Assembly (NCBI GenBank): GCA_038212275.1
Contig: JBBQUR010000001.1
Location: 160,001-224,000, forward strand
Source of the DNA: Planctomycetota bacterium
GTDB lineage: Bacteria; Planctomycetota; B15-G4
DNA: 64,000 bases
Direction: 5' to 3'
Position 1 is the stretch's first letter. Each line of letters opens with the position of its first letter. Made by a program: the position numbers and the translations under genes. Below, piece by piece: positions 28,201-49,237 of this stretch. The notes beneath the pieces were generated by a model. That model saw only the letters and a program-made list of their open reading frames with translations. It ran no database searches and was not told the origin of the DNA.

Positions 28201-30780
28201 TCAGCGCGCCGCCTCGACGTAGCCCAGCTCGATGAGCTGATTGCGCAACTCGTCGCTCAGCTCGATCGACTGGCGCTCGGTGTTGCCCATGCGCATCGAG
28301 TCCTCCATGGCGGCCAGTCGCCGGCGCAGGCTGTCGAGATCGCTGACCCGGTCCGCGGCGAGATTGTGCGTCTCATCGGGGTCCTGCTTCAGGTCGAAGA
28401 GTTCCCACTCGATGCTGGCCGGCTCGTCGCGCGCATCGGTGGTGTCGCTGTGCACGATCTTCAGCTGCCCTTCGCGCAGGCCGGTGCGCCCATGCAGGTA
28501 GCGGTCGATGTGGGAGAAGAGCGGAGTGGGCGGCGCCGCGGGGCGGCCGCCGCGCACGTAATCCGCCAGCGAGCGGCCGTCGAGGCCTTCGGGCACCGGC
28601 TGGCCGAGCAGGTCGAGCAGCGTGGGGAGGATGTCCACCTGGCTGACCGGCTCGTCGATGCGCAGGCCGGCCGGGGCGCCCGGCATGCGGATGATCAGCG
28701 GGATGTGGATCAGGTCCTGGTAGAGCGTGCCGCGGTGACGGAAATGGCCGTGTTCGAAGAACTCCTCGCCGTGGTCGGCGGTGACGACCACGATCGTGTT
28801 GTCGAGCAGGCCCTTCTCGTCCAGCCTGCCGATGAATTCGCCGAGGCGCGCGTCGGTGTGGTGGATCGTCGCGTCGTAAAGGTCGATGAGCCGTTCGCGC
28901 GCGGCTTCGCTGGGCGGGTTCGTTTCCGCATCGCTCGTGTTGAGGCAACGCTGCGCGTCGAAGTCCGCGGGCAGGTCGTGCGGCCGCGCGAAGAGCTGCT
29001 CATCCGCGAAGGGCGGGTCGTATTCGTGCACCGCGAAGGTGTGGAGGAACACCATCCACTTGCGCCGTCCCTGGGCCGAGATCCAGCGCGCGATGTCGTC
29101 GAGCCCTCCGCCGGAGCGCGCCTGGGCGATGAGCTGCTTGTCCGGGTACACGCCGGCCGCGCTCGGCGCGAGAATCTTCGGCACGACGACCGGGTCGATG
29201 GTGGTGTAGCGGTCGAAGCCCGAGGCGAAGCCGTAGTCTACGGACACGAAACCGCCGCCCGTGAAACCGGCCGTGTGGAAGCCGGCCTCGGAGAGGATGC
29301 GCCCGAGCGTCGGCGTGCGCTGGGCATCGACGCGATCGAGCGTGTCGACGGCCAGGTGATGGGGCGGGAAGAGTCCCGTGAAGATCGAGGCGTGCGTGGG
29401 CAGCGTGTACGACGCGGCGGCGACGAGGTCCGAGAAGACCGTCGACTGGCCGGCGAGCTTGTCGAGAAAGGGCGAAGTCGGGCGGTCGTAGCCTTGGAAG
29501 CCGAGATGGTCGGCGCGCAGCGTGTCGATCGAGATGAGCAGCAGCGACGGCGCGTCGGGTCGCTCGGGGCCGCGCACCTTGGGCTGACCGAAGACCATCG
29601 CGGCGTCGCCGGCCACGGAGAACTCCACGGTCACGGGGCCCTGGATGTCCGGCGGCCACGGAATGAAGCGGTCCGTGAACTGCGGCGCCATGCCCGCCTC
29701 TCCCGTGTGCTCGATGATGTTCGCGAGCATGTGGTCGCCCGGCTGCAGCACGATGCTCCAGCTGGTGGCCGTGCCGGGCGCGAGCGCCGGGTTCGGGTCG
29801 GGACACGTGCCCACGGCGAGGTCCACGGCGCCCTCGGGGACGTTGATCGGGATGGAAAGCGTCTTGCCGGGAGGCACCAGGGCCGAGATGCGGTACTGGC
29901 CGGAGATCTTCAGCCCCGAGATGGACACCTTGCCGTCGCTGGTCGGCACCTCGGTGCTCGGGTCGTAGCCGTGGCGCAGCGTCGGTGTCGAGGCGAGCGA
30001 CACGTTGTCGATGATCAGCGGGCTGTCCCACGTGGCGATCACCACGAGGAAGCCGCGCGTCTCGCCCGCGGGCACACTCATGTCGGTGTAAGTGCGCGCT
30101 TCGGAGAGGCCGGTGCCGGCGTCGGTGCGCCACTGCGCCCTGGGTGTTGCCGCGAGCACCTGCACCAGCCCTGCGAGGTTGCGGGCGGCCTCCGGATTTG
30201 CCGCGCCGCGGGCCGTGAAGGTCTGTTCCTTGAGCTTGAATGCCGGCGCCAGGTAGAGGTTGGGACAGGTACTCTCGGCCTTGGCCGGTGCGCCCCAGAG
30301 CAGCGAGGTCAGCGTGTAGCGCGCCGTCTTCGCCACCGCCTCGTAGCGCACGAGCGCACAGCCCGGCGAAAGAACGACGTGGCCCGCCTGCTGGATGATG
30401 CCCGGTGCACCCTTCGCGGGCACCAGCGACTGCTCGAGTTCGGGAGAACAGCTGAGCAGCCACCAGCCGTCCAGCGCATCGAGACCGTCTTCGAAGACGA
30501 CCCTTCCGTCGAAGGGAAGTGCGTCGCCGGTCTGGAGCTGCCGCACGGGAAACTGCGGGACGGGCCGGGCCTCGGTCGTGCCGGATTCATCGCCCTGCCC
30601 GCATGCCAGCACCAGTCCGAGTGCGGCGCCAAGCGCGAGTCGGATCGTCAGCCTCCGGCCCGGAAGGCCTCCGATCGCGCCCGTGAGGTGAACTGACTGC
30701 GACCGGTTCTGCAACGAATGGCCTGCTCGATGGAAGTTCCGGGCGAGCCCGAGACGTTTGTGGGGCGCGTCCGGGCCCAT
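28201..30780 (-). CDS. Exported sulfatase-like hydrolase/transferase (probable lipoprotein), T-x-P-x-H motif, LxxLGY tail
   Basis: LVLAC lipobox; LLISIDTLRADHLG, SYTLPTHASIFTG, HEYDPP, VTADHGEEFFEHG, VSQVDILPTLL, ELFDL..DPDE; ends QLIELGYVEAAR; start uncertain. Confidence 0.88.
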   Translation of the reverse strand: MGPDAPHKRLGLARNFHRAGHSLQNRSQSVHLTGAIGGLPGRRLTIRLALGAALGLVLACGQGDESGTTEARPVPQFPVRQLQTGDALPFDGRVVFEDGLDALDGWWLLSCSPELEQSLVPAKGAPGIIQQAGHVVLSPGCALVRYEAVAKTARYTLTSLLWGAPAKAESTCPNLYLAPAFKLKEQTFTARGAANPEAARNLAGLVQVLAATPRAQWRTDAGTGLSEARTYTDMSVPAGETRGFLVVIATWDSPLIIDNVSLASTPTLRHGYDPSTEVPTSDGKVSISGLKISGQYRISALVPPGKTLSIPINVPEGAVDLAVGTCPDPNPALAPGTATSWSIVLQPGDHMLANIIEHTGEAGMAPQFTDRFIPWPPDIQGPVTVEFSVAGDAAMVFGQPKVRGPERPDAPSLLLISIDTLRADHLGFQGYDRPTSPFLDKLAGQSTVFSDLVAAASYTLPTHASIFTGLFPPHHLAVDTLDRVDAQRTPTLGRILSEAGFHTAGFTGGGFVSVDYGFASGFDRYTTIDPVVVPKILAPSAAGVYPDKQLIAQARSGGGLDDIARWISAQGRRKWMVFLHTFAVHEYDPPFADEQLFARPHDLPADFDAQRCLNTSDAETNPPSEAARERLIDLYDATIHHTDARLGEFIGRLDEKGLLDNTIVVVTADHGEEFFEHGHFRHRGTLYQDLIHIPLIIRMPGAPAGLRIDEPVSQVDILPTLLDLLGQPVPEGLDGRSLADYVRGGRPAAPPTPLFSHIDRYLHGRTGLREGQLKIVHSDTTDARDEPASIEWELFDLKQDPDETHNLAADRVSDLDSLRRRLAAMEDSMRMGNTERQSIELSDELRNQLIELGYVEAAR

Positions 30781-30878
30781 TGAACCACGGATCGGGACCC
30801 TTGTTGCAGCTCGGACGACGCCCACATCGCTGCCGGGAATGATGTTTCCACCGCCGCACGCACTGCAGGCAGCCGTCG

Positions 30879-33395
30879 TCAGCGCGCCGCCTCGACGTAG
30901 CCGAGTTCGATGAGCTGATCGCGCAGTTCGTCGCTCAGGTCGGCCGGCGACCGCCGCGTGTTGCCGGCGCGCAGGCTCTCCTCGACGGCGTCCAGCCGCT
31001 GGCGCATGGCGTCGAACTCCGCGGGACGCTCTCCTGCGAGATTGCGCGTCTCGTCGGGGTCATGCTGCAGGTCGAAGACTTCCCACTCCACGGAGGCCGG
31101 TTCCGCGCGCACATCGCTGGTGTCGCTGTGCACGATTTTCAGGGGCCCGTCGCGGAGGGACGTGCGCGCATGGAGGACTCTCTCGATGTGCGAGAACAGC
31201 GGCGTCGGCGCAGTGGCCGGATGTCCGCCGCGCACGAAGTCCGCCAGCGAGCGGCCGTCGAGGCCTTCGGGCACCGGCTGGCCGAGCAGCTCGAGCAGCG
31301 TCGGCAGGATGTCCACCTGACTGACCGGCTCGTCGATGCGCAGGCCTCGTGCGGCGTCGGGCATGCGGATCAGCAGCGGCACGTGCACGAGGTCCTGGTA
31401 GAGCGTGCCATGGTGACGGAAGTGGCCGTGCTCGAAGAACTCCTCGCCATGGTCGGCGGTCACGACCACGATGGTGTGCTCGAGCAATCCCTTCGCGTCG
31501 AGCCGGGTGATGAAGTCGCCGAGGCATCGGTCCACGGCGTGAATCGTCGCGTCGTACAGGTCGACGAGGCGCGCGCGCTCGGCTTCGCCGGGAGGGCTGG
31601 TCAGCGCATCGCTCCTGGCGAGGCACTCGTGCGCATCGAAGTCCTCCGGCAGGTCGTGAGGTCTCGCGAAGAGCAGCTCGTCCTCCCGGGGCGGATCGTA
31701 CTCGTGCACTCCGAAGGTGTGGATGAAGGCCATCCAGGAGCGACTGCCCTGGAGCGTGATCCAGCGCTCGGCATCGCCGAGTCCTTCGGCTGAAAAGGGG
31801 CGTCCCGCGAAGCGCTTCCCGGCAGGGAACTCGCCCGTCTCCGGCGTCACGCGCCTGAGCCCGACGACGGGGTCGATGCTGATGAACCGGTCGAAGCCCG
31901 CGGCGAAGCCGTAACCGACGGACATGAAGCCGCCGCCCGTGAAGCCGGCCGTGTGGAAACCCGCATCCGACAGCAGGCGCGAGATCGTCGGCGTGCGCTC
32001 CGCGTCGACGCGATCGACCGAGTCGATGGCCAGGTGGTGCGGCGGGAACAGTCCCGTGAAGAGCGAGGCGTGCGTCGGCAGGGTGTAGGACGCGGTGGCT
32101 ACCGTGTCGGTGAAGACGGTGGACTGGCTGGCAAGCTGGTCCAGGAAGGGCGACGTCGGGCGATCGTAGCCAAGGAAGCCGAGATGATCCGCGCGCAGCG
32201 TGTCGATCGAGATGAGCAGCAGCGACGGCGCGTCGGGGTGCTCGGGACCTCGGACCTTGGGTTGCCCGAACACCATCGCGGCGTCGCCGGTCACGGAGAA
32301 CTCCACGGTGACGGGGCCGTCGATGCCCTCGGGCCACGGAAGCAGCCGATCCGTGAACCGCGGCGCCTGTCCTGCGGCGCACGTCCGCTCGCTGAACTGC
32401 GCGATGAGATGGTTGCCAGGCTGCAGCACGATGCTCCACTCGGTCGGTGCGTCGGGCTTCACCGAAGGGCTCGGGTCGGGGCAGGTGCCCACCGCGATGT
32501 CGACGGCGCCGTCCGGAACATCGAGCGGAATCGCGAGCGTCTGCCCGGGCGGGACACGGGCCGAGATGCGGTACTGGCCGGAGATGGTGAGGCCGGCGAT
32601 GGCCACCGTCGCGTCGTCGGTCGGCAACTCCGAACGCGCGTCGTAGCCGAGCCGCAGCGAGGGAATGGCCGACAGCGAAACGCTGTCGATGAGCAGCGGG
32701 GCGTCCAGCGTCGTGAGCATCACCAGGAAGCTCTCGGTCCTTCCGTCGGCGACCTCGACGTCCGCGAAGGTGCGGGCTTCGGCAAAGCCTGAGTCCGCGT
32801 CGACGCGCCACTCGGCCTTCGGATGGAGCGTGGCCTGCAGCAGCAGACCTGCCATCGCGGTGGCCGCTCCTGCTTCGGAGAATCGTCCCTCGGCGAGATC
32901 CCGGTTCTTGAGGTTGTGCGTCCACGCCAGGCTCAGGTGAGGGCAGGGTCTGCCGGCCTTCGAGGGTGAGCCTTGCAGGAACGCCGACAGCGTGTAACGC
33001 GCGCTCATCGACACGGGAACCTGGCGCACGAGAGCGCAGTCGGGAGGCAGGACGACCTCGCCGGGCCGCGCGCCGAGGCCCGGCACGTCCCCTGCCGGCA
33101 CCAGCGAGACATGGCCCTTCCCGGCCGTCCTCAGCAACCACCAATCGTCCAGCGTGTCGAGATCGTCGTCGAGGATGATCTGGCCATCGAAGGGGCGGGT
33201 CTCTCCCGTCTCGAGCTGGCGCAGCGGGAAGCGCGACGCCGCCGGTGCGATGTCGGGGCTCCGGTCGAAGGCGGTCGACAGGCCGAGCAGCGTGCAGAGC
33301 GCGAGCCGCGCCAGGAGGCGTCCGCAGCCCGTGACGTGGCGCGTGAGCGGGTCGGCCTGTGAGCAGATCTGCAACGGATGGCCTGCGTGGAGCAT
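30879..33395 (-). CDS. Exported sulfatase-like hydrolase/transferase, tandem paralog of 28201-30780
   Basis: Same motifs (SYTLPTHASLFTG, VTADHGEEFFEHG), hydrophobic N-terminal signal, identical final residues QLIELGYVEAAR. Confidence 0.88.
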   Translation of the reverse strand: MLHAGHPLQICSQADPLTRHVTGCGRLLARLALCTLLGLSTAFDRSPDIAPAASRFPLRQLETGETRPFDGQIILDDDLDTLDDWWLLRTAGKGHVSLVPAGDVPGLGARPGEVVLPPDCALVRQVPVSMSARYTLSAFLQGSPSKAGRPCPHLSLAWTHNLKNRDLAEGRFSEAGAATAMAGLLLQATLHPKAEWRVDADSGFAEARTFADVEVADGRTESFLVMLTTLDAPLLIDSVSLSAIPSLRLGYDARSELPTDDATVAIAGLTISGQYRISARVPPGQTLAIPLDVPDGAVDIAVGTCPDPSPSVKPDAPTEWSIVLQPGNHLIAQFSERTCAAGQAPRFTDRLLPWPEGIDGPVTVEFSVTGDAAMVFGQPKVRGPEHPDAPSLLLISIDTLRADHLGFLGYDRPTSPFLDQLASQSTVFTDTVATASYTLPTHASLFTGLFPPHHLAIDSVDRVDAERTPTISRLLSDAGFHTAGFTGGGFMSVGYGFAAGFDRFISIDPVVGLRRVTPETGEFPAGKRFAGRPFSAEGLGDAERWITLQGSRSWMAFIHTFGVHEYDPPREDELLFARPHDLPEDFDAHECLARSDALTSPPGEAERARLVDLYDATIHAVDRCLGDFITRLDAKGLLEHTIVVVTADHGEEFFEHGHFRHHGTLYQDLVHVPLLIRMPDAARGLRIDEPVSQVDILPTLLELLGQPVPEGLDGRSLADFVRGGHPATAPTPLFSHIERVLHARTSLRDGPLKIVHSDTSDVRAEPASVEWEVFDLQHDPDETRNLAGERPAEFDAMRQRLDAVEESLRAGNTRRSPADLSDELRDQLIELGYVEAAR

Positions 33396-33553
33396 GGCCC
33401 GGCGACTGACGCAACCTGCGCGCCAGCACGGTGTCGCGCCGGGCCTTCATGAACCGCTGGAAGCGATGATAGTGGCTCTCCGCCGACGGCGGTACTTTCC
33501 AGCCGATGCCGGGGATCGGGCCGTCGCGTGTCGCGTCCAGGCCGGCAGCCGGC

Positions 33554-35365: not shown

Positions 35366-35368
35366 CGT

Positions 35369-37267: not shown

Positions 37268-37419
37268 GCCTGCAGCCCGAGGGAAAAGACTGTCCGTCCC
37301 TTCGACCGATTGTCGCGGCAAGCTTGACCGGTGCTGCGCGTAGGCATTGCGCCGCTCCCGCCGGCGTGCCCAGGGTGCGTGTTGGGCCCGATGCGCGCGG
37401 TGCACGATCCACCAGTGAC

Positions 37420-38984: not shown

Positions 38985-39815
38985 TCACAGCGTGACGCCG
39001 AACAGTCCCTTGAGCGCGAGGCCGGCAACGATGGAAAGCACGAAGAAGGCGGCGAGGATGCCGCCCTCGCCACCGGGGAACCAGCCGAGATCCCTCTCGG
39101 GGTACTTCCAGCGGATCGTTTCCACGGGTGAGTCGCTCGGCAGGCCCTCTTCGCCCGGATAGAGGAAGCCTTCCCAGCTCTTGGTGCGCATGACCGGCAC
39201 GCGGCGGTTCTCGCCGCCCACGGCGATGCTCTTGGTCACCGCGCTGTCGCCGACGTGCACGGTGACGACGAGGTCGCCCGGCGCCTCGGTCCGCAGGCGC
39301 CACGCGATCTCGCCCCGGGCGGTGCGCACGGGTGGCGCGTCCTGCACCAGCCCCGGCGGAAGCTCCAGCGTCACGGCGGTGATCGGCACCGACAGATGCG
39401 CCGGATCGAGCTGGACCTCCAGGATTTCCACCGTGCCGACCGGAACCGGTGCGAAGGCGTATGTGGCCTCGAGCTGGAAGAGGATGGTCATCATCGGCAC
39501 GAACATGACCACCATCGGCAGCAGGTTGTGGCCGATGTACAGCGCGTTCTTCCACAGGATCTTCAGCGTTGCGGTGAAGACTCCGAGGATGTCCTCGTTG
39601 TAGAGGCGGATCTCGAGCAGGTGCACCTTGATGTCGTTCTTCGCCGCTGCGATGCCCTTCTGGTTGCTCGCGTGCTTGTAGACGATCAGCGCGACGATGC
39701 CGCCGAGAACGGACCAGAAGATGATGTCGGCCCACGGCGACCACGCGCGCTGCACGCCGAACGGGGCGAGCAGCACGCCGAAGATGGCCGAGGTGATGGC
39801 GTTGAACGTGTTCAT
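38985..39815 (-). CDS. Membrane protein resembling DUF106/EMC3/TMCO1 (Oxa1 superfamily) with an extracytoplasmic insert
   Basis: TM1, helical segment SNQKGIAAAKNDIK..., TM2 LLPMVVMFVPMMTIL, beta-rich loop, TM3 FFVLSIVAGLALK; last gene of the sat operon; family call made by eye. Confidence 0.6.
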   Translation of the reverse strand: MNTFNAITSAIFGVLLAPFGVQRAWSPWADIIFWSVLGGIVALIVYKHASNQKGIAAAKNDIKVHLLEIRLYNEDILGVFTATLKILWKNALYIGHNLLPMVVMFVPMMTILFQLEATYAFAPVPVGTVEILEVQLDPAHLSVPITAVTLELPPGLVQDAPPVRTARGEIAWRLRTEAPGDLVVTVHVGDSAVTKSIAVGGENRRVPVMRTKSWEGFLYPGEEGLPSDSPVETIRWKYPERDLGWFPGGEGGILAAFFVLSIVAGLALKGLFGVTL

Positions 39816-39828
39816 GGCATGCGGCTGC

Positions 39829-40023
39829 TCAGGAGATGTAGCCGAGTCCGCGCAGCTTGTTCTTGATGTCCTCGTCGCTCTCGGCGTCCTCGAACTGCTG
39901 CAGTTCCTTCTCGAGGATGTGCGTGATGAACTCCTCGACGGTGGCGTAACCGGCCGTGTCGGAGACCTTCTTCAGGCGCGCGATGAGGTCCTTGTCGAGC
40001 TTGACTTTGCCGCCACCGAACAT
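39829..40023 (-). CDS. Small ribbon-helix-helix-like protein with LxxLGY tail (64 aa)
   Basis: KVKLDKDLIARLKKVSDTAGYATVEEFITHILEK, ends DEDIKNKLRGLGYIS; GGAG RBS. Confidence 0.85.
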   Translation of the reverse strand: MFGGGKVKLDKDLIARLKKVSDTAGYATVEEFITHILEKELQQFEDAESDEDIKNKLRGLGYIS

Positions 40024-40105: not shown

Positions 40106-42283
40106 TCAGCGATCGAGGATGGAGTGGCCCACCATGCCCTCGCCCGCGGGCAGCCCGAAGTGCTGCAGGAGCGTGACGGTGAGGTCGGGGAGCGCGTGGC
40201 CCGCGCGGGGCAGCTTCCGATTCACGAGCAGGATACCGGGGACGACCTCGGGAGCCATGAGGTGGCTGCCGGACCACAGGTCGTCGTTGTCCGAGAGCAC
40301 GTCCGTGCCGACGTGGCCCAGCGTCGAGGCGTCGGAGCAGTCATAGCCGGCGTTGTAGCCGACGATGACGTCCGGGGCCTCGGCGCGACGCGGTGCCGAA
40401 TAGATGTCGCGGCTGCGGTCCACGCGCAGGACGACCTGGCCGCCGTCCTTGTCGTCGCGCCATGCGAGCAGGTCGGCCGAGAGCTTCGCCATGAGCGCGT
40501 CGGCATCGGCGGGATCCACGCTGCCGCGCGCTTCGCGTCCCTTGAGGTTCAGATACAGGCCGTTGAAGCCGAGGCCGTAGACCGTCGTGCGCGTCCAGTC
40601 GATGTCGCTCGCGTCGATGTCGGGCACGCCGGAGACCACCACCTTGACCGTGCTCCCGTCGTCGAGCACGCGCTCCTCGACCTTGTCGGGCGAGGGAATG
40701 TCGCCCTCGGTCTTGTCCCCCTTGAGGAACAGGTAGCCATGCTCGCGCAACCAGCTGTTGGTGTGCGCCTGCCGCGTGTAGGGCTGGAAGCCGTGGTCCG
40801 ACATGACGATGAGCAGCGTGCCCTCGGGCAGCGCCGTGCGCACCTTGCCGAGCAGCCTGTCGCAGTTGCGGTAATGATTCTCGATGTCGAGCGAGTGCCG
40901 GGCCGCGCTGTCCTTCTCCCACGCGGGGTGGTGGGGCACGCCGGGCGTCTTCGGGTCGCCGTGGCGCCACTCCATGTGGCACTGCAGGTCGATGTCCGAG
41001 AGATACATGAAGCTGCACTTGCCGGGACCGAAGCGCTCCAGCGCGAGGTCGAGCATGCGCTCGCCGTCGGCGTGCACGAGCCCGACCTGCAGCTCGTAGT
41101 CGTCATCGTCGAAGAGGCCGTCCTTGAGGGCGTTGATCTCCTCGGGGAAGCCCTGCGTCCAGTACGGGCCGAGCGCGGCGGCGAGCGCTTCGGCGGCGCC
41201 GTCCGGCGTGGCGATCGGCTGCGCGGGCGCGGCCGGATCGATGTTCACGGGCGAAGCGTAGAGCTTGAAGCCGGGGCGCACTTCCTTGGCGTAGAAGCGC
41301 ACGATGCCGTGCAGCGACAGCATGCCCATCGGCAGCGCATCGAAACTCACGTTCAACCACTCGCTGAACTCGCCCTCGCGCACGATCGTCTCGGAGCCTC
41401 CGACCCGGATCCACAGCACATCCTCCTCGGGATCGACGTGCACGGTGAGGTCGGTGACGAGGTAGTCGTTCTTGCCCGGCAGCTGGCCCGGCTCGAGGTG
41501 GAAGATGTCCGGCGGACCGCGCAGTTTCGTGTGCACGGTGTCGGGGGTGCCGTCGAGGTCCTCGTCGTCCACGGTGACGAACTCGAGGTCGGCCTTGTGG
41601 TCCTTCAGCTTGGTGAAGGCGTCATCGGTGTACCAGGTGTACTTGCCGTACTCGCCGCGCATGTCCACCGTGCCCATGCCGGAGAGCGTCAGGGCTTCGC
41701 TGGCAGGCACCGGATAGTTGCCGGGAATGCGATAGACCTGCGTGTCCACGCCGATCTCGTGCAGGTAATCCCAGTAGGGCTTGCCGCTGCGGTTGTTGCC
41801 GACGGTCTCGCCGCCGAGCGGCAGCACGTAGCCGAAGAGATGCACCGAGCCGGGCACGTCGACGGACGGCGGCGGCGTCGCCGACGCGATTGGCCGATAC
41901 GTCGCCGGGTCGCGGTGCACGAAGTCGAAGATGCCGTGGCCGCCGGGATCCATGCCCGTCGCGAAGGTGGACCACGCGACCGGGCTCTGCGGCGGATTCA
42001 CCGTGGCGAGCGACTGGAAGGTGCCTTCCGCGGCGAGCCGCGTGAACTCGGGCATCTTGCCTTCGTCCATGAGGCGCTGAAGGATCACCGGGTCCATGCC
42101 GTCGATGCCGAGCACGAAGGCTCCGGGCTTGACGGGCGCATCGGCATCGCTCGCGCCGCGCGCCGCGGGAATCAGAGCCGACAGCAGGCCCAGAGCGGCC
42201 AGCGCGCACGCGGCGGTCGGGAGGCGCGCGCCTGCACGACGGCGCGTCCGCAGTGCTTCGAATCTGGAGCCGCGAGGCCTCAT
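40106..42283 (-). CDS. Exported alkaline-phosphatase-superfamily (nucleotide pyrophosphatase-like) protein, ~725 aa
   Basis: Signal peptide, GIDGMDP, NPPQSPVAWSTF, DLQCH, VMSDHGF, WSGSH; ATG 42283 overlaps the upstream stop (ATGA). Confidence 0.88.
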   Translation of the reverse strand: MRPRGSRFEALRTRRRAGARLPTAACALAALGLLSALIPAARGASDADAPVKPGAFVLGIDGMDPVILQRLMDEGKMPEFTRLAAEGTFQSLATVNPPQSPVAWSTFATGMDPGGHGIFDFVHRDPATYRPIASATPPPSVDVPGSVHLFGYVLPLGGETVGNNRSGKPYWDYLHEIGVDTQVYRIPGNYPVPASEALTLSGMGTVDMRGEYGKYTWYTDDAFTKLKDHKADLEFVTVDDEDLDGTPDTVHTKLRGPPDIFHLEPGQLPGKNDYLVTDLTVHVDPEEDVLWIRVGGSETIVREGEFSEWLNVSFDALPMGMLSLHGIVRFYAKEVRPGFKLYASPVNIDPAAPAQPIATPDGAAEALAAALGPYWTQGFPEEINALKDGLFDDDDYELQVGLVHADGERMLDLALERFGPGKCSFMYLSDIDLQCHMEWRHGDPKTPGVPHHPAWEKDSAARHSLDIENHYRNCDRLLGKVRTALPEGTLLIVMSDHGFQPYTRQAHTNSWLREHGYLFLKGDKTEGDIPSPDKVEERVLDDGSTVKVVVSGVPDIDASDIDWTRTTVYGLGFNGLYLNLKGREARGSVDPADADALMAKLSADLLAWRDDKDGGQVVLRVDRSRDIYSAPRRAEAPDVIVGYNAGYDCSDASTLGHVGTDVLSDNDDLWSGSHLMAPEVVPGILLVNRKLPRAGHALPDLTVTLLQHFGLPAGEGMVGHSILDR

Positions 42284-44598
42284 CGCCGCTCCCGATCGCG
42301 CAGCGGTGCGCGCGCAGGTGTTCCGGATGGCGGCGCAGCGGCGGCATTCGAGGCGTCCCCGGATACGGATGCGGTCGATGCGTGAGCAGGCGGGGAGGTG
42401 CCCTCGGGGAAGATGCGTGCGCCCGGAGCCGAGCCGGACTGCGAGAGCGTGTGCGGGTCGAGCGGGCCGCGCACGGCGGCCGCGTCGCCCTCGGCCGCGA
42501 AGACCGGCTTGCCCTGCATGTACTTCGGCGCCACCTGGCCGAAGAGGGCCATGACCGACGGTGCGAGGTCCAGGATGTTCGGCGTGTCGGTGTTGATGGG
42601 CAGGTTGCTGAAGAAGACGCCGGGCACGATGCGCGGATCCACGCAGTGGTCGCCGCTCCAGCTCTTCGTGTTGTCGGTGAAGACTTCCTTCGGCACCGCG
42701 CCGGTCGCGCAGTCCCAGGAATTCCGGTAGCCGCCGTCGTAGCCGACGATGAGGTCCGGGGCATCGAGGCGGTAGGGGCCGTCGAAGAAATCCGCGGCCG
42801 CGAAGACGTCGAGGATCGCGTGCTTGCCGGTCTGCGGATCGATCAGTTCCTTCAGCCTGGCGATGAGCTCCGCCTTCAGCGCGTCGTACTCCGCGCCCTC
42901 GGTCACGATGCCGCTGGCCTCGCGGCCCTTGCGATTGATGAACATGCCGGTGAGACCGAGGCTGAAGGCCTTCGTGCGGCTCCAGTCCACGCTTTCGAAC
43001 CAGTCGCCGCTCGTCTCCTTGCCGTCCTTGAGGAACAGGTAGCCGTTTTCCTTGAGCCACGCATTGAGGTTCACGCCGCGGCGGAAATTCGTGAAGCCGT
43101 GATCGGACATCACGACGAAGGCAGTGTCGGGGTTCTCGACGACGTCCTTCCAGATGCGGCCGAGCAGGTCGTCCATGCGCTTGTAGACGTCGGCGATGGT
43201 GTTCTTGTGCTTCTCGACATCCTTGCCGTGGTTGGCCGGGTGGGTCGGGTCGAGGTAGCGGTAGAACATGTGCTGCACGCGGTCGGTCGTGTCGAAGACC
43301 GTCGTGACGAGGCCCTTCTTCGTCTTGCTCAGCGCGTCGAGGAACATCCTCTCGCGCTCCTCGGCGATGATCAGGCACTGCTCGTAGAAGGCCTGCTCGT
43401 CGATGACCCGCTCGTTGAGCGCCCAGGTGTCCTCGGCGAGGCCCAGCGTCGCGAACGGCCCGAGCTTCTTGGCGAGGTAGATCGAGTACACGCTCGGGTG
43501 GCTGATCGGCATCGCCGGGTTTTCCGGGTCGATGTGGATCGGCGTCATGTAGACGTTCACGTCCGGCTCGATCGCCATGATGTAGAAGCGCGCGATGCCC
43601 TTCACCTTGATGCCGAGGCCCGCCTTGAAGGTGAGCTGGATCCACGGCGAGTATTCGCGCAGGTTCAGGTGGAAGGGTTCGCAGTCCTCGATCTCGAAGC
43701 GCGCGCCACGCTGATCCGCGTCCACGATGAGCGTGAAGGGCACCGTCATCGACGGGTCGCCCCTCACCATGCTGTTGGTGGGGCCCAGGATGCGCGAGCG
43801 GATCTGTCCCTGCTTGTTGCGGCGCAGCACCGTCTGCTCGCCGCCCGTGAACGCCGCGTGACCCTCATGCTGCGCCGTGCTGAAGAAGCCGAAGGTGCCC
43901 TGGCTGCCGCGCAGGTCCGGCACGCACATGCCCGAGAGCAGCAGGCCGTTGAACTTCACCGGCGGGAAGGTGATGGGCACGCGCTGGATGATCGAGAAGA
44001 TGTGCTTCTCGCCGAGCAGCTTCCAGAAGGCCTGGCTTTTCTGGAGCAGCTTGATGCGCGGCTTTTCCATCGGAATCATGTACTTCCCGATGTTCAGCAC
44101 CTTCTTGGCGTTGCCGATGTCCGTGGACGACAGCATCGGCATGTAGGTGCACGGGTCGCGCGTGAGGAAGTCGTAGATGTCGTGGCGCGACGGGTCCACG
44201 CCCGTCGTGAACGACGACCACGCCACCGGCGACATCGACGGGTAGCTGGTGGCCAGCGGGCGGAAGACGCCCTTGTCCGCGAGCCTCTGGAAGTTGGGCA
44301 GCTTGCCCTCGCGCATGAGGCGCGTGGCGATGCCGGGATCCATGCCGTCGAGCCCGAGCACCACGACGCGCTTCACGCGCGCGTGCTTGAACGGGTTGCC
44401 CACGCTGACCATGCGCCAGACGAGCCGGATCGGCCAGATGAGCATCGTGCCGAAGGCGATGAAGAAGGTCAGGATGAGCGCGAAGGCCGAGCCCGCAAAG
44501 GCGAAGCCGGCACCCGGTCCGATGTACGCGTGTGCCTGCTCCCCGCCGAAGAGCACCCAGACGGCGACGAGCGCGGCGATACGCAGCAGCGGCAGCAT
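42280..44598 (-). CDS. Membrane-anchored alkaline-phosphatase-superfamily protein with N-terminal YIGPG motif, ~772 aa
   Basis: Signal ...QAHA|YIGPGAG, TM helix, basic stretch, then GLDGMDP, YPSMSPVAWSSF, DRVQH, VMSDHGF, WSGDH; ATG 44598 with GAGG RBS. Confidence 0.9.
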   Translation of the reverse strand: MLPLLRIAALVAVWVLFGGEQAHAYIGPGAGFAFAGSAFALILTFFIAFGTMLIWPIRLVWRMVSVGNPFKHARVKRVVVLGLDGMDPGIATRLMREGKLPNFQRLADKGVFRPLATSYPSMSPVAWSSFTTGVDPSRHDIYDFLTRDPCTYMPMLSSTDIGNAKKVLNIGKYMIPMEKPRIKLLQKSQAFWKLLGEKHIFSIIQRVPITFPPVKFNGLLLSGMCVPDLRGSQGTFGFFSTAQHEGHAAFTGGEQTVLRRNKQGQIRSRILGPTNSMVRGDPSMTVPFTLIVDADQRGARFEIEDCEPFHLNLREYSPWIQLTFKAGLGIKVKGIARFYIMAIEPDVNVYMTPIHIDPENPAMPISHPSVYSIYLAKKLGPFATLGLAEDTWALNERVIDEQAFYEQCLIIAEERERMFLDALSKTKKGLVTTVFDTTDRVQHMFYRYLDPTHPANHGKDVEKHKNTIADVYKRMDDLLGRIWKDVVENPDTAFVVMSDHGFTNFRRGVNLNAWLKENGYLFLKDGKETSGDWFESVDWSRTKAFSLGLTGMFINRKGREASGIVTEGAEYDALKAELIARLKELIDPQTGKHAILDVFAAADFFDGPYRLDAPDLIVGYDGGYRNSWDCATGAVPKEVFTDNTKSWSGDHCVDPRIVPGVFFSNLPINTDTPNILDLAPSVMALFGQVAPKYMQGKPVFAAEGDAAAVRGPLDPHTLSQSGSAPGARIFPEGTSPPAHASTASVSGDASNAAAAPPSGTPARAPLRDRERR

Positions 44599-44650
44599 GG
44601 TGATCCTCGGGAGGCATGCCGGGCTGCGCGTCGCGCTCCCGGCGGTCAGG

Positions 44651-45259
44651 TCAGTCGATGAAATGCAGTGTCCGCAGCTTTTCGCGGATGGCAAGTTCCT
44701 CGGCCTCGGGGATGTCCTCGCCGGGCGCGGCGGGGATCAGACCCTTGAGCTCGAGGTAGCGCACGATCGCGTCGGTCGATTCCTCGATGGACTCCTTGCC
44801 GGAGTCGATCTTGATTTCGGCGTGCTCGGGCGCCTCGTAAGGATCGTCCACGCCGGTGAAACCCTTGATCTCGCCTGCGCGGGCCTTCTTGTAGAGGCCC
44901 TTCACGTCGCGGGCTTCCAGCTCGTCCAGCGTGGCGTGGGTGTAGACCTCCACGAAGCTGCCGTGCAGGGCGCGGATCTCGTCGCGCACCGCCTTGTAGG
45001 GCGAGATGGCCGCGGCGATGCACACGGTGTTGTTGCGCGCCAGGAGGCCCGCCACGAAGCCGATGCGGCGGATGTTCGTGTCACGGTCTTCCTTGGAGAA
45101 ACCGAGGCCCTTGGAGAGGTTCGTGCGCACGACATCGCCGTCGAGCAGTTCCACGTTCATGCCGCGCGCGAGGATGACGCGCTGAACGCGCTTGGCGAGC
45201 GTGGTCTTGCCCGCGCCCGAGAGTCCGGTGAACCAGAGAGTGAAGCCGGTGTTGGCCAT
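44651..45259 (-). CDS. cysC: Adenylyl-sulfate kinase with C-terminal extension
   Basis: WFTGLSGAGKTT, LLDGDVVR, LGFSKEDRDTNIRRIG, ISPY, RDVKGLYKKARAGEIKGFTGVDDPYEAP. Confidence 0.96.
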   Translation of the reverse strand: MANTGFTLWFTGLSGAGKTTLAKRVQRVILARGMNVELLDGDVVRTNLSKGLGFSKEDRDTNIRRIGFVAGLLARNNTVCIAAAISPYKAVRDEIRALHGSFVEVYTHATLDELEARDVKGLYKKARAGEIKGFTGVDDPYEAPEHAEIKIDSGKESIEESTDAIVRYLELKGLIPAAPGEDIPEAEELAIREKLRTLHFID

Positions 45260-45352
45260 GAGTAGTCCGGGGGAAAGGTAGGGGATGCAGGACGGGATCG
45301 GAAATGAAACGTTGGAATCGATCCGGCCACGCGAGGGCGGATCGGGCGTGCT

Positions 45353-46336
45353 TCAGCGCACCTTGGCCTCGAGGAACGGAACCTCGAAGACCTTCTCGTG
45401 CATGATCGGGCCGTGCCCGAAGTAGCCGTGCTCGCCGAAGAGCTCGCCGTGGTCCGCCGTGACCGTGATGAAGGTGTTCTTCGGCACGATGTCGTACAGC
45501 TTCGGGAAGACCACCCGGTCCAGGTACTTGACCGTGTTGATCTGGCGCTGGCGCAGCTCGTCCAGTTTTTCCTGGTTGAAGAACTGCGGCACCTTGTCGT
45601 CCTTGATCAGCTTGCCGCCGACGACCTGGCTGTCCAGGTGCTTGAAGACGCCGTGGATGCCCGAGATGCGCGGCCAGTCCTTCGGGTCCTCGTCTGGCAG
45701 CGCGAAGGGGTAGTGCGTCTCGCCGACGTTCAGCATGTAGAAGCTGGGGCGCTCGTCGCTGAACTTCAGCGTGTCGAGCATCTTCAGCATGTCGTTGTGC
45801 TTGTCCATCAGCTGGAAGGTGTCGAAGGCGCGGTTCACGCCGGTCTTGTTGTTGAGCACCGGCAGCGAGACGCGCGCGCCCGTGATGTATCCCATCTCGC
45901 TGCGCAGGAACTCCGGCATCCACAGCGACGGCACGAGCTTCCCGAACTCCATGCCCTCGGTGCCGAAGCGCGTGTTGTAGTTGAGGAAGTCGTCCTTGTA
46001 GTACTCGGACGCGAACACGTTCTCGGGGCTGTGATGCGGCAGCAGGCCCATGAGCAGGTTGTAGTGCGACGGGCCTGTCCAGCTCGCGTAGCTCCAGCGC
46101 CGCTCGATCTTTCCACCACTGATCTTCGCGATGTTCTTCGGCTCCGCCGCCATGAACGAGTCGTAGCGGCAGGAGTCGAGCGTGATCACGATGTAGTTGT
46201 TTTTGCCCTTCGGATCCGGGCGCGACGACAGTCCGCCGGGCATCGGGCGCGGGCCGGGTCGGCCCGCGCCGGCCGCGGGGCCCCTTCCCGGTGCGGGAGC
46301 GGGCTTGCCGCCGAAGAGCTTGTCGATCAGTCCCAT
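45353..46336 (-). CDS. Cytoplasmic sulfatase-like/metalloenzyme-superfamily protein (T-x-P-x-H motif)
   Basis: ITLDSCRYD, ASWTGPSH, ETHYPF, VTADHGELFGEHGYFGHG, EVPF; no signal peptide. Confidence 0.85.
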   Translation of the reverse strand: MGLIDKLFGGKPAPAPGRGPAAGAGRPGPRPMPGGLSSRPDPKGKNNYIVITLDSCRYDSFMAAEPKNIAKISGGKIERRWSYASWTGPSHYNLLMGLLPHHSPENVFASEYYKDDFLNYNTRFGTEGMEFGKLVPSLWMPEFLRSEMGYITGARVSLPVLNNKTGVNRAFDTFQLMDKHNDMLKMLDTLKFSDERPSFYMLNVGETHYPFALPDEDPKDWPRISGIHGVFKHLDSQVVGGKLIKDDKVPQFFNQEKLDELRQRQINTVKYLDRVVFPKLYDIVPKNTFITVTADHGELFGEHGYFGHGPIMHEKVFEVPFLEAKVR

Positions 46337-46433
46337 CGGGAATCTCTCCTCGTGAGCGCGCCGCGGGTCGTCCGTCGGCGCGGGTGCAGTGGGGGTGTGG
46401 CGGCCGGACCGCCTGCGTTGACTTCGCCGTCGT

Positions 46434-47597
46434 TCAGGCCGGTGAGCCGGCCGATGCGGACAGCGCCGCGATCAGGATGTCGGCCACCTCCGGTCGCGTG
46501 AACTCCACGGGCGGACGCGTGCCGCTGCGCAGCATCTCGCGCACCTTCGTGCCGGAGAGCATCACCATGTCCTCGGGCAGCGTCGCCGCCGAGGTCTTGT
46601 TGGTGGCCATCGCGCCGGCCTTGCGGTCCCAGAAGGCGTTCTCGAACATCAGCGGCGTGATGCCGATCTCCTCCGCCGTGAAGCTGCGGATGAAGCTCTG
46701 CGCATCGAAGCTTCCGTAGAAGCTGCCCACGCCCGCGTGATCGCGGCCGACGATGAAGTGCGTGAATCCGTAGTTCTTGCGGATCAGCGCGTGGAAGACC
46801 GCTTCGCGCGGTCCCGCATACCGCATCGCCTGCGGATACACGGCCAGTGCGACGCGGTCCTTCGGGTAGTACTTCGCGAGCAGTGCCTTGTAGCAGTCCA
46901 TGCGCACGCGCGCCGGGACGTCGTCGCTCTTGGTCTCGCCGACGAGCGGGTGGATCACCAGGCCGTCCACGCCCTCGAGCGCGCACTTGGTGAGGTATTC
47001 GTGCGCACGGTGCACCGGGTTGCGCGTCTGGAAGGCCACGATGGTCTTCCAGCCCTTGGCCTTGAAGAGCACGCGCGTCTCGCGCGGCGAGAGGCGGAAC
47101 TCGTTCGCGAAGTCGTACTTCGGCAGGTCGAGCACCCACACCGGACCGGCAAGGTAGTCCGGGCCGATGGAGTCCAGGTACTGCACGCCGGGGTGGCTCT
47201 TGTCGGTGGTGCCGAGGCAACCCCGAGCCTCCTCGTTCTTGTCGAAGCTGTAGCGCTCTTCCAGCGTCATGATGCCGAGCAGGTTGCCGGCTTCGTCCTG
47301 CAGCGCGAGGTCGCTGCCGATGGCGTACTTCGCGTCGCCCTTGGCGGAGAGCGTGACGGGCAGCGGCCACACCACGCCGTTGGCGAGGCGGCACGTCGTC
47401 GCGACGGAGTGCAGGTCGTTGCGTCCCATGAAACCCTCGAGCGGGCTCATGGCGCCGGTGCCGAGCATCTCCAGGTCGCTGGTCTCGCGCGCGTTCAACG
47501 TCACGCGGGGGGCCTTGCGAGCTGCGGCCAGCAGCGCGTCGCGCTGTGCACCGGAGGCGATGCGGTTGATCAGGCGTCCACCATGAGCTGCGATCAT
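46434..47597 (-). CDS. sat: Sulfate adenylyltransferase (Sat-type ATP sulfurylase)
   Basis: HGGRL, SPLEGFM, AFQTRNPVHRAHEYL, MRYAGPREAVFHALIRKNYGFTHFIVGRDHAGVG, LSGTKVREML, EFTRPEV. Confidence 0.97.
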   Translation of the reverse strand: MIAAHGGRLINRIASGAQRDALLAAARKAPRVTLNARETSDLEMLGTGAMSPLEGFMGRNDLHSVATTCRLANGVVWPLPVTLSAKGDAKYAIGSDLALQDEAGNLLGIMTLEERYSFDKNEEARGCLGTTDKSHPGVQYLDSIGPDYLAGPVWVLDLPKYDFANEFRLSPRETRVLFKAKGWKTIVAFQTRNPVHRAHEYLTKCALEGVDGLVIHPLVGETKSDDVPARVRMDCYKALLAKYYPKDRVALAVYPQAMRYAGPREAVFHALIRKNYGFTHFIVGRDHAGVGSFYGSFDAQSFIRSFTAEEIGITPLMFENAFWDRKAGAMATNKTSAATLPEDMVMLSGTKVREMLRSGTRPPVEFTRPEVADILIAALSASAGSPA

Positions 47598-47609
47598 CGA
47601 AAGGGTCTC

Positions 47610-47852
47610 CTACAGGTATCCGAGGTTCTGGAGTTTGCGACGGATCTCGGCGATGTCTTCCTTGGAGAAGGCGTTCGTCGTGCCGTCCGGGGGGTGAGTT
47701 GATGTCTTCTGCAGCGCGCTGTCGCCGACGAGGTCGCGCAGCACGAACACGATGAAGTCCGTCGGGGACGAAAAGCCCGACTCCGCGATCACCTGCTGGA
47801 TCCGCTCGTAGAGCGGCCGCGGGATCTTGACGGTGACCTTGGGTTCGCGCAT
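47610..47852 (-). CDS. Small CopG/ribbon-helix-helix protein with LxxLGY tail (80 aa), first gene of the sat operon
   Basis: MREPKVTVKIPRPLYERIQQVIAESGFSSPTDFIVFVLRDL, ends EDIAEIRRKLQNLGYL; ATG 47852. Confidence 0.85.
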   Translation of the reverse strand: MREPKVTVKIPRPLYERIQQVIAESGFSSPTDFIVFVLRDLVGDSALQKTSTHPPDGTTNAFSKEDIAEIRRKLQNLGYL

Positions 47853-48026
47853 GGACGGTGGGGCCTTCGTGCGGCGTGGGGGCGTGGAGAAAGGCGTGCG
47901 AAGCGGGGTGCCCGGCTGAGCAGGGATCGGCGGGCCGGCGGAGTGTGGAGGAGGCTGGTTCTCGGTCGGGAGTCGCGGCGAGAGCTTGGATCCGGGTTGC
48001 TCAGGGACCCGATCCGGGTCACTTCG

Positions 48027-48084
48027 CACTCCAATCACACTCCAAAAGGAGTGCGGACTATACCCGCCAGATGCGACGGCGCAA
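48027..48084 (-). promoter_or_regulatory. Putative sigma-70 promoter of the sat operon with overlapping CACTCC/GGAGTG operator boxes
   Basis: Minus strand TTGCGC(48084-48079)-N16-TATAGT(48062-48057); CACTCC at 48027 and 48038, inverted GGAGTG at 48048. Confidence 0.45.
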
Positions 48085-48215
48085 GCACATCCCGGGCCTG
48101 CGGGACGGTGCCTTGAGGCAAAGCGACGAGGTCCGGCCTCGCATCTCCGCGCAGGCCCCGTATTCTGCGCCATTCGGGTTTCATTCCTCCCCCTTCGGCC
48201 CCTGGAGCCATTCCG

Positions 48216-48722
48216 ATGACCATTCGCATGGCACTCGCCGGCAGCCTGCTCGTGCTGCTCGCGGCGTGCGGCACCAAGTCTCCCCAGGCATTGGTGGACG
48301 CCATCCAGGCCGACCTCAACAGCGGCAACTTTCAGGCAGCCAGCATCGGGGCGCAGTCCGCGCTTGGCCTGGAGACCATCAAGGCCGACAAGGCGCTCAC
48401 CTGGCGCGTCGAGAAGATGCAGCTGGACGCGCTGGCAGGAAGCAAGCAGAGCGCCGACATCCTTGCGAACCTCACGCGACTGCGCGCGAGCAATCCTGCG
48501 CAGGTGGATGCGGCCCTCTACGCCTCGCTTGCAGGCAAACTGAGCCAGCAGCACGAGTACCTCGGCGCGATCGACATCGTCCACGCCGGCATCGAGCAGT
48601 TCCCCGAGCAGAAGGCGCGCTTCGAGGGCGAACTCAAGAACCTCACGCTCTCCGCGAAGGCTGCCAGCGAAACCGGCGACAACGCCGCGCTCGACAAGCT
48701 CCGCAGCCTCGGATACCTGTGA
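48216..48722 (+). CDS. Helical lipoprotein with LxxLGY tail
   Basis: Lipobox LLAAC; ends DNAALDKLRSLGYL. Confidence 0.85.
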   Translation: MTIRMALAGSLLVLLAACGTKSPQALVDAIQADLNSGNFQAASIGAQSALGLETIKADKALTWRVEKMQLDALAGSKQSADILANLTRLRASNPAQVDAALYASLAGKLSQQHEYLGAIDIVHAGIEQFPEQKARFEGELKNLTLSAKAASETGDNAALDKLRSLGYL

Positions 48723-49237
48723 ACCGCCGCGCGGCGTCCGTGCTTGCGCTTGCGGCCATGCTGGCCGGATGCGCGGAGCCTTCCGCACAGGAGCGTGCCG
48801 ACGCCGCTCAGGCTGCGCTCAACGGCGGCAAGTTCGCAGCGGCCCGCGCCGACGCGGAAGCCGGCCTCGCCCGCGACGGGACCACGGCGGACAAGGCGCT
48901 CACCTGGCGCCTCGAGAAGCTGCGCCTCGACGCGATGGCCGGAAGCGGAGACGGCGAGGAAGTGCTCGCGAGCCTGACTCGACTCGCGGCGACTCACCCG
49001 GACAAGGTCGATGCGTCTCTGTACGTCGCGCTCACCGACAAGCTTGCACAGGAGGGCAAGTTCGTCGGCGCCATCGACGTCGCGCATGCCGGTCAGCAGA
49101 AGTTCCCCGACAGGGCGGAGTACTTCGACGAAGAGATGACCCGCCTCATGGATGCGGCGAAACGGGCCGCTGAGGGCGGCGACAACACGGCGCTCGACCA
49201 TCTCGCCGGGCTCGGCTACCTGAGCAAGCCGAAGTAG
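48719..49237 (+). CDS. Helical lipoprotein with LxxLGY tail, paralog of 48216-48722
   Basis: GTG 48719 overlapping the upstream stop; lipobox LAGC; shares DKALTWR.EK, VDA.LY, GAID..HAG, GDN.ALD.L..LGYL. Confidence 0.85.
   Translation: MNRRAASVLALAAMLAGCAEPSAQERADAAQAALNGGKFAAARADAEAGLARDGTTADKALTWRLEKLRLDAMAGSGDGEEVLASLTRLAATHPDKVDASLYVALTDKLAQEGKFVGAIDVAHAGQQKFPDRAEYFDEEMTRLMDAAKRAAEGGDNTALDHLAGLGYLSKPK

Follow-up and report, generated by a model that had tools for sequence, protein, structure and literature searches.

A conserved LxxLGY tail helix on sulfatase-like enzymes and on accessory proteins of a planctomycete gene cluster: a candidate docking element

Introduction

Choline sulfatase and phosphonate monoester hydrolase (PMH), members of the alkaline phosphatase (AP) superfamily, carry C-terminal oligomerisation arms, and ribbon-helix-helix (RHH) proteins of the antitoxin and Mnt types have C-terminal tails that either fold against a partner or mediate tetramer formation. 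In DltX, the C-terminal Tyr acts as an acyl shuttle. Tetratricopeptide repeats (TPR) follow the consensus W4-L7-G8-Y11, and TPR proteins read terminal peptides such as EEVD and PTS1. Here we describe a short helix ending in Leu-x-x-Leu-Gly-Tyr (LxxLGY), referred to as the LGY tail, which was found in a stretch of 64,000 nucleotides from a Planctomycetota bacterium (assembly GCA_038212275.1, contig JBBQUR010000001.1, positions 160,001 to 224,000), hereafter the window. It is present on sulfatase-like enzymes, RHH-like proteins and lipoproteins in and around a gene cluster linked to activated sulfate, 3'-phosphoadenosine 5'-phosphosulfate (PAPS), and looks like an undescribed, widespread type of terminal docking or assembly helix. 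Full-text searching of the literature found no description of the motif.

Like the arms of choline sulfatase and PMH, the LGY tail is a C-terminal extension beyond the catalytic fold of the AP superfamily, and the closest solved relatives of a tailed sulfatase-like protein are of the sulfatase/PMH type (e.g. 4upl, 2vqr and 6fny). It differs from these arms in being short, invariant in sequence, placed behind a variable linker and present on non-AP proteins too. The two small RHH-like proteins of the window, RHH64 and RHH80, resemble the antitoxin and Mnt types in having an RHH-like core joined through a flexible linker to a short C-terminal helix that is conserved, but no toxin gene lies beside them and their tail is common to enzymes and lipoproteins. 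The conserved Tyr near the C-terminus recalls DltX; however, the window encodes no MBOAT protein, the adenosine 5'-phosphosulfate (APS) kinase CysC has Phe at this position, and where DltX is a small membrane peptide, the proteins with the LGY tail are large and either soluble or exported. The spacing of L-x-x-L-G resembles that of W4/L7/G8 in TPR helix A, whereas the Tyr of the tail stands directly beside the Gly. Ligands recognised through a free C-terminus (PDZ, HbYX, TPR carboxylate clamp) lie at a fixed distance from the end, while that of the LGY tail varies overall, being fixed only in RHH64 (-IS), RHH80 (-L) and most of the lipoproteins (-L). The sorting domains PEP-CTERM, LPXTG and MYXO-CTERM, found on exported proteins only, have a hydrophobic segment and a basic end, both of which the LGY tail lacks.

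We tentatively read the tail as a portable, non-covalent docking or packing helix acting on both sides of the membrane, and give this reading slightly less than an even chance. The other readings are weighed below with the results that bear on them.

Results and discussion

A tail shared by four protein families

An initial annotation, made from the DNA alone, had pointed out seven tail stretches in the window, and all of them translated as claimed: LIELGY in two sulfatase-like proteins, LRGLGY in RHH64, LQNLGY in RHH80, LRSLGY and LAGLGY in the tandem lipoproteins A and B, and the variant LRTLHF in CysC (Table 1). Each was located one to five residues ahead of the stop codon and was preceded by an acidic stretch, and no acidic residue adjoined the tail Tyr, its neighbours being basic or neutral. 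Of the 54 proteins encoded wholly inside the window, six ended in the LxxLGY tail, and the other window proteins, which belonged to housekeeping families, were tail-free as had been stated. The carriers had been described as unrelated to one another, which held in that four independent families carry the tail, but not within the sulfatase-like pair, the RHH pair and the lipoprotein pair, each of which consists of paralogues.

The tail was present in both compartments, on lipobox proteins as well as on RHH64, RHH80 and CysC, which have no signal peptide, so that an export signal is unlikely, in agreement with the initial annotation. A more general sorting, secretion or degradation signal would fit the C-terminal or nearly C-terminal placement of the tail in most carriers and the export of many of them; 18 of the 31 tailed sulfatase-like proteins of the genome had a lipobox-like N-terminus by a rough rule. 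However, apart from the three carriers without a signal peptide, the tail was followed by 0-12 mostly polar residues and not by a hydrophobic or basic anchor, its distance from the C-terminus varied (0-12 residues and more), internal copies existed, and the exported carriers already had N-terminal signals. The NCBIfam models gave nothing relevant on the tails, and no sorting-domain model matched. We regard such a signal as hardly probable at all.

Enrichment of the motif at C-termini

As the window DNA is about 70% G+C and contains many spurious open reading frames (ORFs), genes were called from codon usage over the whole assembly (4.65 Mb, 40 contigs), giving 3,545 proteins and 89% coding sequence. 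Motif counts at the C-terminus are unaffected by errors in start codons, because C-termini are set by stop codons only. The predicted proteome contained 74 copies of LxxLGY, of which 17 were within 7 residues of the C-terminus, while about 1.5 would be expected under uniform placement. In 200 shuffles of the last 40 residues of each protein, the mean number of C-terminal copies was 0.46 and the maximum was 2. The C-terminal frequency of the motif in this genome was thus far above chance. LxxLGY was not found at the N-terminus of any of the 3,545 proteins, nor was the reversed motif at any C-terminus of the predicted proteome, and 13 look-alike motifs (LxxLGF, LxxLAY, LxxLGL and others) showed no C-terminal enrichment.

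Eleven of the 17 C-terminal copies lay outside the locus, all on AP-superfamily proteins. When these 11 strict and nine near-terminal carriers were scanned, all 20 were AP-superfamily members, the best family being PF00884 in 19 and PF01663 in one. The non-AP LxxLGY carriers of the genome, namely RHH64, RHH80 and the two lipoproteins, were all encoded at 39.8-49.2 kb of the window. The tail is thus not tied to this locus, most carriers being sulfatase-like enzymes spread across the genome.

Over 80 related loci, synonymous changes were seen in the RHH64 tail at the codons for Leu, Gly and Ser, the last being encoded by TCC, AGC, TCA, TCG, AGT or TCT. This variation indicated that the peptide itself is under selection, and ruled out a motif read from DNA or RNA around the stop codon. 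Searching Pfam with six tail peptides at E-values up to 10 gave chance-level matches to LEM (0.063) and DUF5610 (0.11) only.

The Thr-type sulfatase-like clade

A hidden Markov model built from nine tailed proteins encoded outside the locus detected 51 sulfatase-like proteins in the genome. The pattern hydrophobic-x-x-hydrophobic-G-Y was present in the last 70 residues of 31 of them, including 29 of the 32 best-scoring. Membership of the AP superfamily was indicated by the match to PF00884 (E = 1.9e-47). The tailed clade has Thr at the nucleophile position (WTxPS, YTLPTH) and not the Cys/Ser-x-P-x-R of formylglycine (FGly) sulfatases; judged by these signatures, the tailed proteins are members of the AP superfamily but not FGly (Type I) sulfatases. 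Among Cys-type sulfatase ORFs from two other genomes, collected by rough ORF picking, none of the 15 had an LGY tail.

In an alignment of 18 paralogues with about 30% identity, whose rows were picked for having the tail, L465, L468, G469 and Y470 were invariant, likewise the catalytic residues D60, T100, D288 and H289. The paralogue L095, used as a query, retrieved 1,643 proteins at E ≤ 1e-20. Among the best 120 of these, strict LxxLGY was found 12 residues or fewer from the end in 71 and a loose form in 80, and the loose motif was present somewhere past residue 250 in 108. The tail aromatic was Tyr in 101 of the best 120, and Phe, Trp or His in none. The distance between tail and C-terminus ranged over 0-12 residues and more, sometimes with a low-complexity extension beyond the tail.

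The AlphaFold2 model of L095, based on the 18-row alignment, had a mean predicted local distance difference test score (pLDDT) of 84 and contained helices at residues 449-456 and 459-468, the latter being the tail helix. Of the 50 structural matches to this model, 44 stopped at residue 453 or before, and sequence alignments of L095 with PDB entries ended at residue 453. Since most of these alignments end by residue 453, the tail helix lies outside the known sulfatase fold.

Two further observations were made on these enzymes. A MinD-like membrane-targeting amphipathic helix was considered for the tail and rejected because of the acidic or neutral character of the sulfatase tails. An N-terminal region of about 400 residues, which had no Pfam match and precedes the Thr-type PF00884 domain, is common to three paralogous sulfatase-like proteins of about 820-860 residues (window 28201-33395, minus strand; genome C5:137515-139974).

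The RHH-like proteins

The search with RHH64 found 400 homologues, and the 120 listed among them, at 70-100% identity, came from Planctomycetota, Acidobacteriota, Actinomycetota and other records. Homologues compared across phyla were 60-98% identical. The tail GLGYIS was invariant (L57, G59, L60, G61, Y62, I63 and S64) in 38 aligned sequences from several phyla, and the Tyr was retained in 80 of the 80 related loci. RHH80 is a paralogue of RHH64 (hhalign probability 97.5%, E = 6e-12), with the tails aligned to each other. In 12 aligned RHH80 sequences K73, L74, L77, G78, Y79 and L80 were invariant behind a linker variable in both length and sequence, and all 13 RHH80 homologues ended in R/K-K-L-x-N/G-LGYL. 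The RHH assignment is a provisional one, based on a NikR N-terminal match at E = 9.5e-4, weak and far below the cut-off, and on the comparison of RHH80 with NikR 2bj1 (E = 0.075). Neither protein had a Pfam hit, and sequence searches of solved structures with RHH64 and RHH80 gave no significant hits.

The tandem lipoproteins

Lipoproteins A and B are 48% identical to each other. The first search for homologues gave three proteins, and at E ≤ 1e-3 a profile search gave 572 cluster representatives. L162, G166, Y167 and L168 were invariant in an alignment of 16 sequences sharing 29-48% identity. Among 137 listed relatives of up to 260 residues, 95 had the tail with Tyr, one had it with Phe, and 41 lacked the motif end; these 41 include fragments, proteins with longer low-complexity ends past LGY and four with P-Y-L. 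A lipobox-like N-terminus was present in 92 of the 137. In the alignments of the sulfatase-like paralogues, RHH64, RHH80 and the lipoproteins, the tail was in each case the best-conserved segment.

The AlphaFold2 model of lipoprotein A (16 rows) was an all-helical repeat with a mean pLDDT of 90.8. A turn of five residues separated its long helix at 130-151 from the tail helix (157-164, followed by GYL), and the last blocks had a pLDDT of 94-95. The best-matching folds were TPR proteins, namely LapB (7t6d), BamD (3qky) and Sti1 TPR2AB, with a Z score of about 11.4, which is below the caution line for helical repeats. Several of the structural alignments reached residue 168, and those to seven-helix TPR domains ended near residue 154. 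Lipoprotein B matched Pfam TPR_14 at E = 0.0016, under the cut-off. In our reading, the modelled tail adds half a repeat to the solenoid end. A tail buried in its own fold had been named in the initial annotation as an outcome that would refute its proposal of a tag with a sulfate-carrying Tyr, and the lipoprotein tail was indeed modelled in this way.

CysC and the tail Tyr

CysC of the window, a protein of 202 residues, matched PF01583 over residues 4-151 (E = 8.8e-62). The kinase domain ends near residue 175, its native last helix ending in ...LELKGLI, and is followed by a Pro/Gly linker, an acidic stretch and a helix. None of the 24 solved APS kinases aligned past residue 185, and therefore the CysC tail is a 27-residue add-on. 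CysC genes adjoined the module in 19 of the related loci. Twelve of these encoded a Phe variant (...RLKSLNFID and similar), two acidobacterial ones ended in RERLQALGYL, two were tail-free (L055 and L076), and three were fused to Sat and closed with the kinase's native helix (LHLEKLGYIGA). The acidobacterial sequences of the same cluster confirmed that LRTLHF is a true variant of the tail. Twelve of the 14 tailed CysC homologues had Phe for Tyr, together with Asn, Lys, Gln, Ser or His for Gly. The CysC tails of Planctomycetota form a variant of their own, an E-rich stretch followed by I-x-x-[KR]-L-K-x-L-[NKQSH]-F-[IV]-[DS].

The initial annotation had suggested that the Tyr carries sulfate or phosphate between enzymes. 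Chemical use of the hydroxyl, by which the tail enters an AP-type active site as acceptor or pseudo-substrate and carries the sulfate or a phospho-group, would explain why Tyr is almost never replaced by Phe outside CysC (101:0 in the sulfatase-like proteins, 95:1 in the lipoproteins and 80/80 in RHH64). The carriers are all AP-superfamily enzymes or are encoded beside them and the genes for PAPS synthesis, and Thr-nucleophile AP enzymes that modify proteins exist (EptC and PptA). However, Phe takes the place of Tyr in the window CysC and in 12 of the 14 tailed homologues, no sulfotransferase or MBOAT Pfam domain was present among the 54 window proteins, the residues beside the Tyr were not acidic, and the lipoprotein tail was modelled as packed in its own fold. 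The suggestion found no support in these results, and we consider it very unlikely. A relay version, in which the Tyr of a tethered tail transiently takes the sulfo- or phospho-group at the metal site of AP-type enzymes with a Thr or Ser nucleophile (AP-A inside, AP-B and the sulfatase-like enzymes outside), CysC Phe being a non-accepting docking form, is just as improbable.

Internal copies of the motif

The LGY helix was also found inside proteins. An 870-residue YfbK-like protein (L134, genome C16:86571-89183) has vWF_A, VWA and YfbK_C domains and a transmembrane segment near residues 125-144, and its disordered, low-complexity periplasmic linker contains two LGY helices (about 176-188 and 247-259). 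In the sulfatase-like protein L131 (genome C1:47654-49531), an LGY helix at residue 413 is followed by TPR repeats at 448-519, and a Pfam BTAD match starts at residue 411, i.e. at the LGY helix. L131 was the only one of four genome proteins with an internal copy in which the helix led into TPR. The lipoprotein and the TPR region of L131 showed no homology in hhalign (probability 2.8%), and Pfam TPR models did not match the tail alone.

LxxLG followed by an aromatic residue is a common helix ending, a Gly C-cap with a hydrophobic staple. The tail could accordingly be a structural end-cap that arose or was kept separately in each family, with no common partner or function. In line with this, the same pattern ends ordinary internal helices, with 57 of the 74 genome copies lying away from C-termini. 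The native last helix of APS kinases closes similarly (...LHLEKLGYIGA in the fused Sat-CysC and ...LELKGLI in the window CysC), and the lipoprotein tail was modelled inside its own fold with high confidence (pLDDT 94-95). An end-cap leaves unexplained, however, why the helix follows long, variable Pro/Gly- or acid-rich linkers in RHH80, CysC and the sulfatases, why two copies lie within a disordered linker, and why all non-AP carriers are encoded within 10 kb of one conserved cluster. L, G and Y, invariant in proteins that are 30% identical overall, are also conserved more strictly than is usual for caps. We judge independent end-caps to be unlikely.

Gene cluster and its distribution

The minus-strand operon of the window encodes, in order, RHH80, ATP sulfurylase (Sat), a 327-residue STM4013-like protein, CysC, AP-A, AP-B, RHH64 and a 276-residue membrane protein, as identified with Pfam and NCBIfam. 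Upstream, the two lipoprotein genes are divergently oriented, and downstream, two histidine kinase genes separate the operon from the sulfatase-like pair. The 80 related loci, from several phyla, came from a search of public genomes with RHH64. AP-A, AP-B, RHH64 and the membrane protein, the core module, were in the same order in all 80, and 17-19 loci also had Sat, the 327-residue protein and CysC. RHH80 was present in 13 loci and a lipoprotein homologue in 13-16. Among ORFs of at least 45 residues in these loci, 112 ended in the motif: 80 RHH64, 13 RHH80, 12 lipoproteins, two CysC, three fused Sat-CysC and two sulfatase-like proteins; no other family among them did so.

AP-A has an invariant hydrophobic N-terminal anchor, 'AYIGPGAGF', with basic residues next to it, from which its catalytic domain would be cytoplasmic. 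The AP-B homologues have signal peptides, often with a lipobox, pointing to export. AP-A and AP-B thus look like one AP-type enzyme for each face of the membrane.

Among 201 sampled genomes of the phylum, RHH64 was detected in 24 and the sulfatase-like clade (E ≤ 1e-75) in 71. The clade was present in 22 of the 24 genomes with RHH64 and in 49 of the 177 without it, a comparison uncorrected for kinship, in which the threshold was chosen after the first scoring and only eight candidates were scored per genome. This co-occurrence is an association and not a test; the module occurred almost only where the clade occurs.

The LGY tail as a proposed docking or packing helix

A helix of invariant sequence behind varying linkers, added to complete domains, with two copies in a disordered linker and with its non-AP carriers gathered round two AP-type enzymes, argues for docking or packing, and the docking tag named in the initial annotation is the best reading of the tail, its partner side being a proposal. 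On this view, some 12-15 residues would form a self-contained helix that is connected to the protein body through a variable linker. It would open with an acidic N-cap (S/T/D-x-E type), continue through an amphipathic turn and close with a Leu-x-x-Leu-Gly-Tyr-hydrophobic C-cap. We propose the envelope enzymes with a Thr nucleophile, the sulfatase-like/NPP-like members of the AP superfamily, as the main and ancestral home of this helix, and the same helix would have been added to the accessory proteins of the PAPS-linked cluster. With its Leu/Leu/Tyr/hydrophobic face the tail would contact a helical surface, which in the TPR-like lipoprotein would be part of the same protein (in cis) and elsewhere would belong to a scaffold of helical repeats, a partner subunit or an AP-type enzyme (in trans). 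The lipoprotein model may represent the cis example, the tail helix packing on a helical repeat. RHH64, RHH80 and CysC would be held with the membrane-tethered AP-A in the cytoplasm, and the lipoproteins and sulfatase-like enzymes with AP-B in the periplasm.

Several results weigh against a docking helix. The tail helix of L095 was modelled with a pLDDT of only about 78 and its linker with 66-70, and the model indicated neither docking nor a site for it. The lipoprotein tail, if it lies within its own fold as modelled, need not be a free tag in that protein. The near-absolute preference for Tyr over Phe outside CysC goes beyond the need of a purely hydrophobic contact, and the hydroxyl therefore seems to matter. 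Pfam TPR followed the internal LGY helix in none of seven sulfatase homologues. The sulfatase-like clade, with tails, was present in the 49 genomes where RHH64 was not found, and the one of these that was checked directly, a genome of the same order (G199, 91% complete), had GY tails at six of nine fetched loci. The tail therefore does not depend on the cluster; it belongs to the Thr-type clade, independent of the module.

Furthermore, no conserved reader gene, TPR or other, was found by the module in the 80 loci. All-against-all clustering of 5,371 ORFs from these loci, with Pfam searches on 10 cluster examples, gave lineage-specific neighbours only (thioesterase, PQQ propeller and AMP-binding). 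This absence is what would be expected if the tail were a homotypic assembly tag, the LGY helices pairing tail to tail with no receptor and building either higher oligomers of each carrier, such as RHH tetramers from dimers and sulfatase dimers or tetramers, or assemblies of different carriers from one compartment, an arrangement that serves both compartments without a common reader. RHH proteins, APS kinases and sulfatases are all known oligomer families. On the other hand, 8-10 residues make a rather short helix for stable bundling, and in the lipoprotein model the tail is packed against the body of the protein itself. We consider homotypic pairing quite unlikely, and retain the docking or packing helix as the preferred reading.

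The Thr-nucleophile clade takes in thousands of uncharacterised "sulfatase" annotations from Planctomycetota, Acidobacteriota, Myxococcota and other phyla. The tail helix is the most conserved non-catalytic feature of this clade, and its binding target would show how envelope enzymes are organised. The tail also offers a way into a widespread, unstudied cluster that combines a membrane protein and a pair of NPP-like enzymes, presumably one for each side of the membrane, with an RHH protein of extreme conservation and, in some loci, with dedicated PAPS synthesis, and the LGY motif is a simple, searchable marker for annotating this system. As RHH64 and RHH80 are built like antitoxin-like regulators, it may be speculated by analogy that the tag couples their DNA binding to enzyme occupancy; if RHH proteins carry the tag of the enzymes, gene expression could be linked to the occupancy of the latter.

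Features of the window and neighbouring genes

The features of the locus are collected in Table 1.

Table 1. Tailed and tail-free proteins encoded at the locus. Positions are those of the window; tail sequences are given up to the stop codon.
Protein	Position	Strand	Tail	Description
Sulfatase-like AP-superfamily lipoprotein	28201..30780	-	LSDELRNQLIELGYVEAAR; LIELGY 28219-28236	N-terminal domain of unknown type (about 400 residues), then PF00884; Thr nucleophile position (YTLPTH)
Paralogue of the 28201..30780 protein	30879..33395	-	LIELGY 30897-30914	Sulfatase-like; identical tail motif
Membrane protein	38985..39815	-	Tail-free	276 residues, four hydrophobic segments; core module member
RHH64	39829..40023	-	IKNKLRGLGYIS; LRGLGY 39838-39855	64 residues, ribbon-helix-helix-like; acidic linker
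AP-B	40106..42283	-	Tail-free	725 residues, NPP/Phosphodiest-type, AP superfamily; N-terminal signal
AP-A	42280..44598	-	Tail-free	772 residues, NPP/Phosphodiest-type, AP superfamily; N-terminal membrane anchor
CysC (APS kinase)	44651..45259	-	LAIREKLRTLHFID; LRTLHF 44660-44677	Phe variant of the tail
STM4013-like protein	45353..46336	-	Tail-free	327 residues, cytoplasmic, AP superfamily; weak PF00884 match
ATP sulfurylase (Sat)	46434..47597	-	Tail-free	
RHH80	47610..47852	-	IAEIRRKLQNLGYL; LQNLGY 47616-47633	80 residues, RHH64 paralogue; variable linker
Lipoprotein A	48216..48722	+	GDNAALDKLRSLGYL; LRSLGY 48699-48716	Lipobox LLAAC; all-helical TPR-like model
Lipoprotein B	48719..49237	+	DNTALDHLAGLGYLSKPK; LAGLGY 49202-49219	Lipobox MLAGC; tandem paralogue of A

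The 276-residue membrane protein had no match in Pfam or NCBIfam, and the nearest Atlas clusters were unnamed. A weak lead (Atlas score 0.86) was a neighbour cluster in which 17% of the members carry EMC3_TMCO1, the Oxa1-type insertase domain. The 327-residue protein encoded between Sat and CysC resembles STM4013/SEN3800 (E = 3.5e-17) and was 70-88% identical in 17 related loci, four of which had no Sat or CysC nearby. A possible consumer of PAPS is encoded on another contig (C2:241616-242416, plus strand), where the sole Sulfotransfer_3/Sulfotransfer_1 match of the genome was located.

Two histidine kinases are encoded between the sulfatase-like genes and the module (33554-37267, minus strand), one a hybrid with two receiver stretches and the other of the CHASE4-HAMP type. 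Such a pair is also found behind the module in a single related locus (L004). On the plus strand, a 727-residue protein is encoded at 24459-26642, in which the last 150 residues form a GreA/GreB domain and the preceding approximately 570 residues are without a Pfam match. It is followed at 26659-28191 (plus strand) by a 510-residue nitroreductase-methyltransferase fusion, which adjoins the module in six related loci as well.

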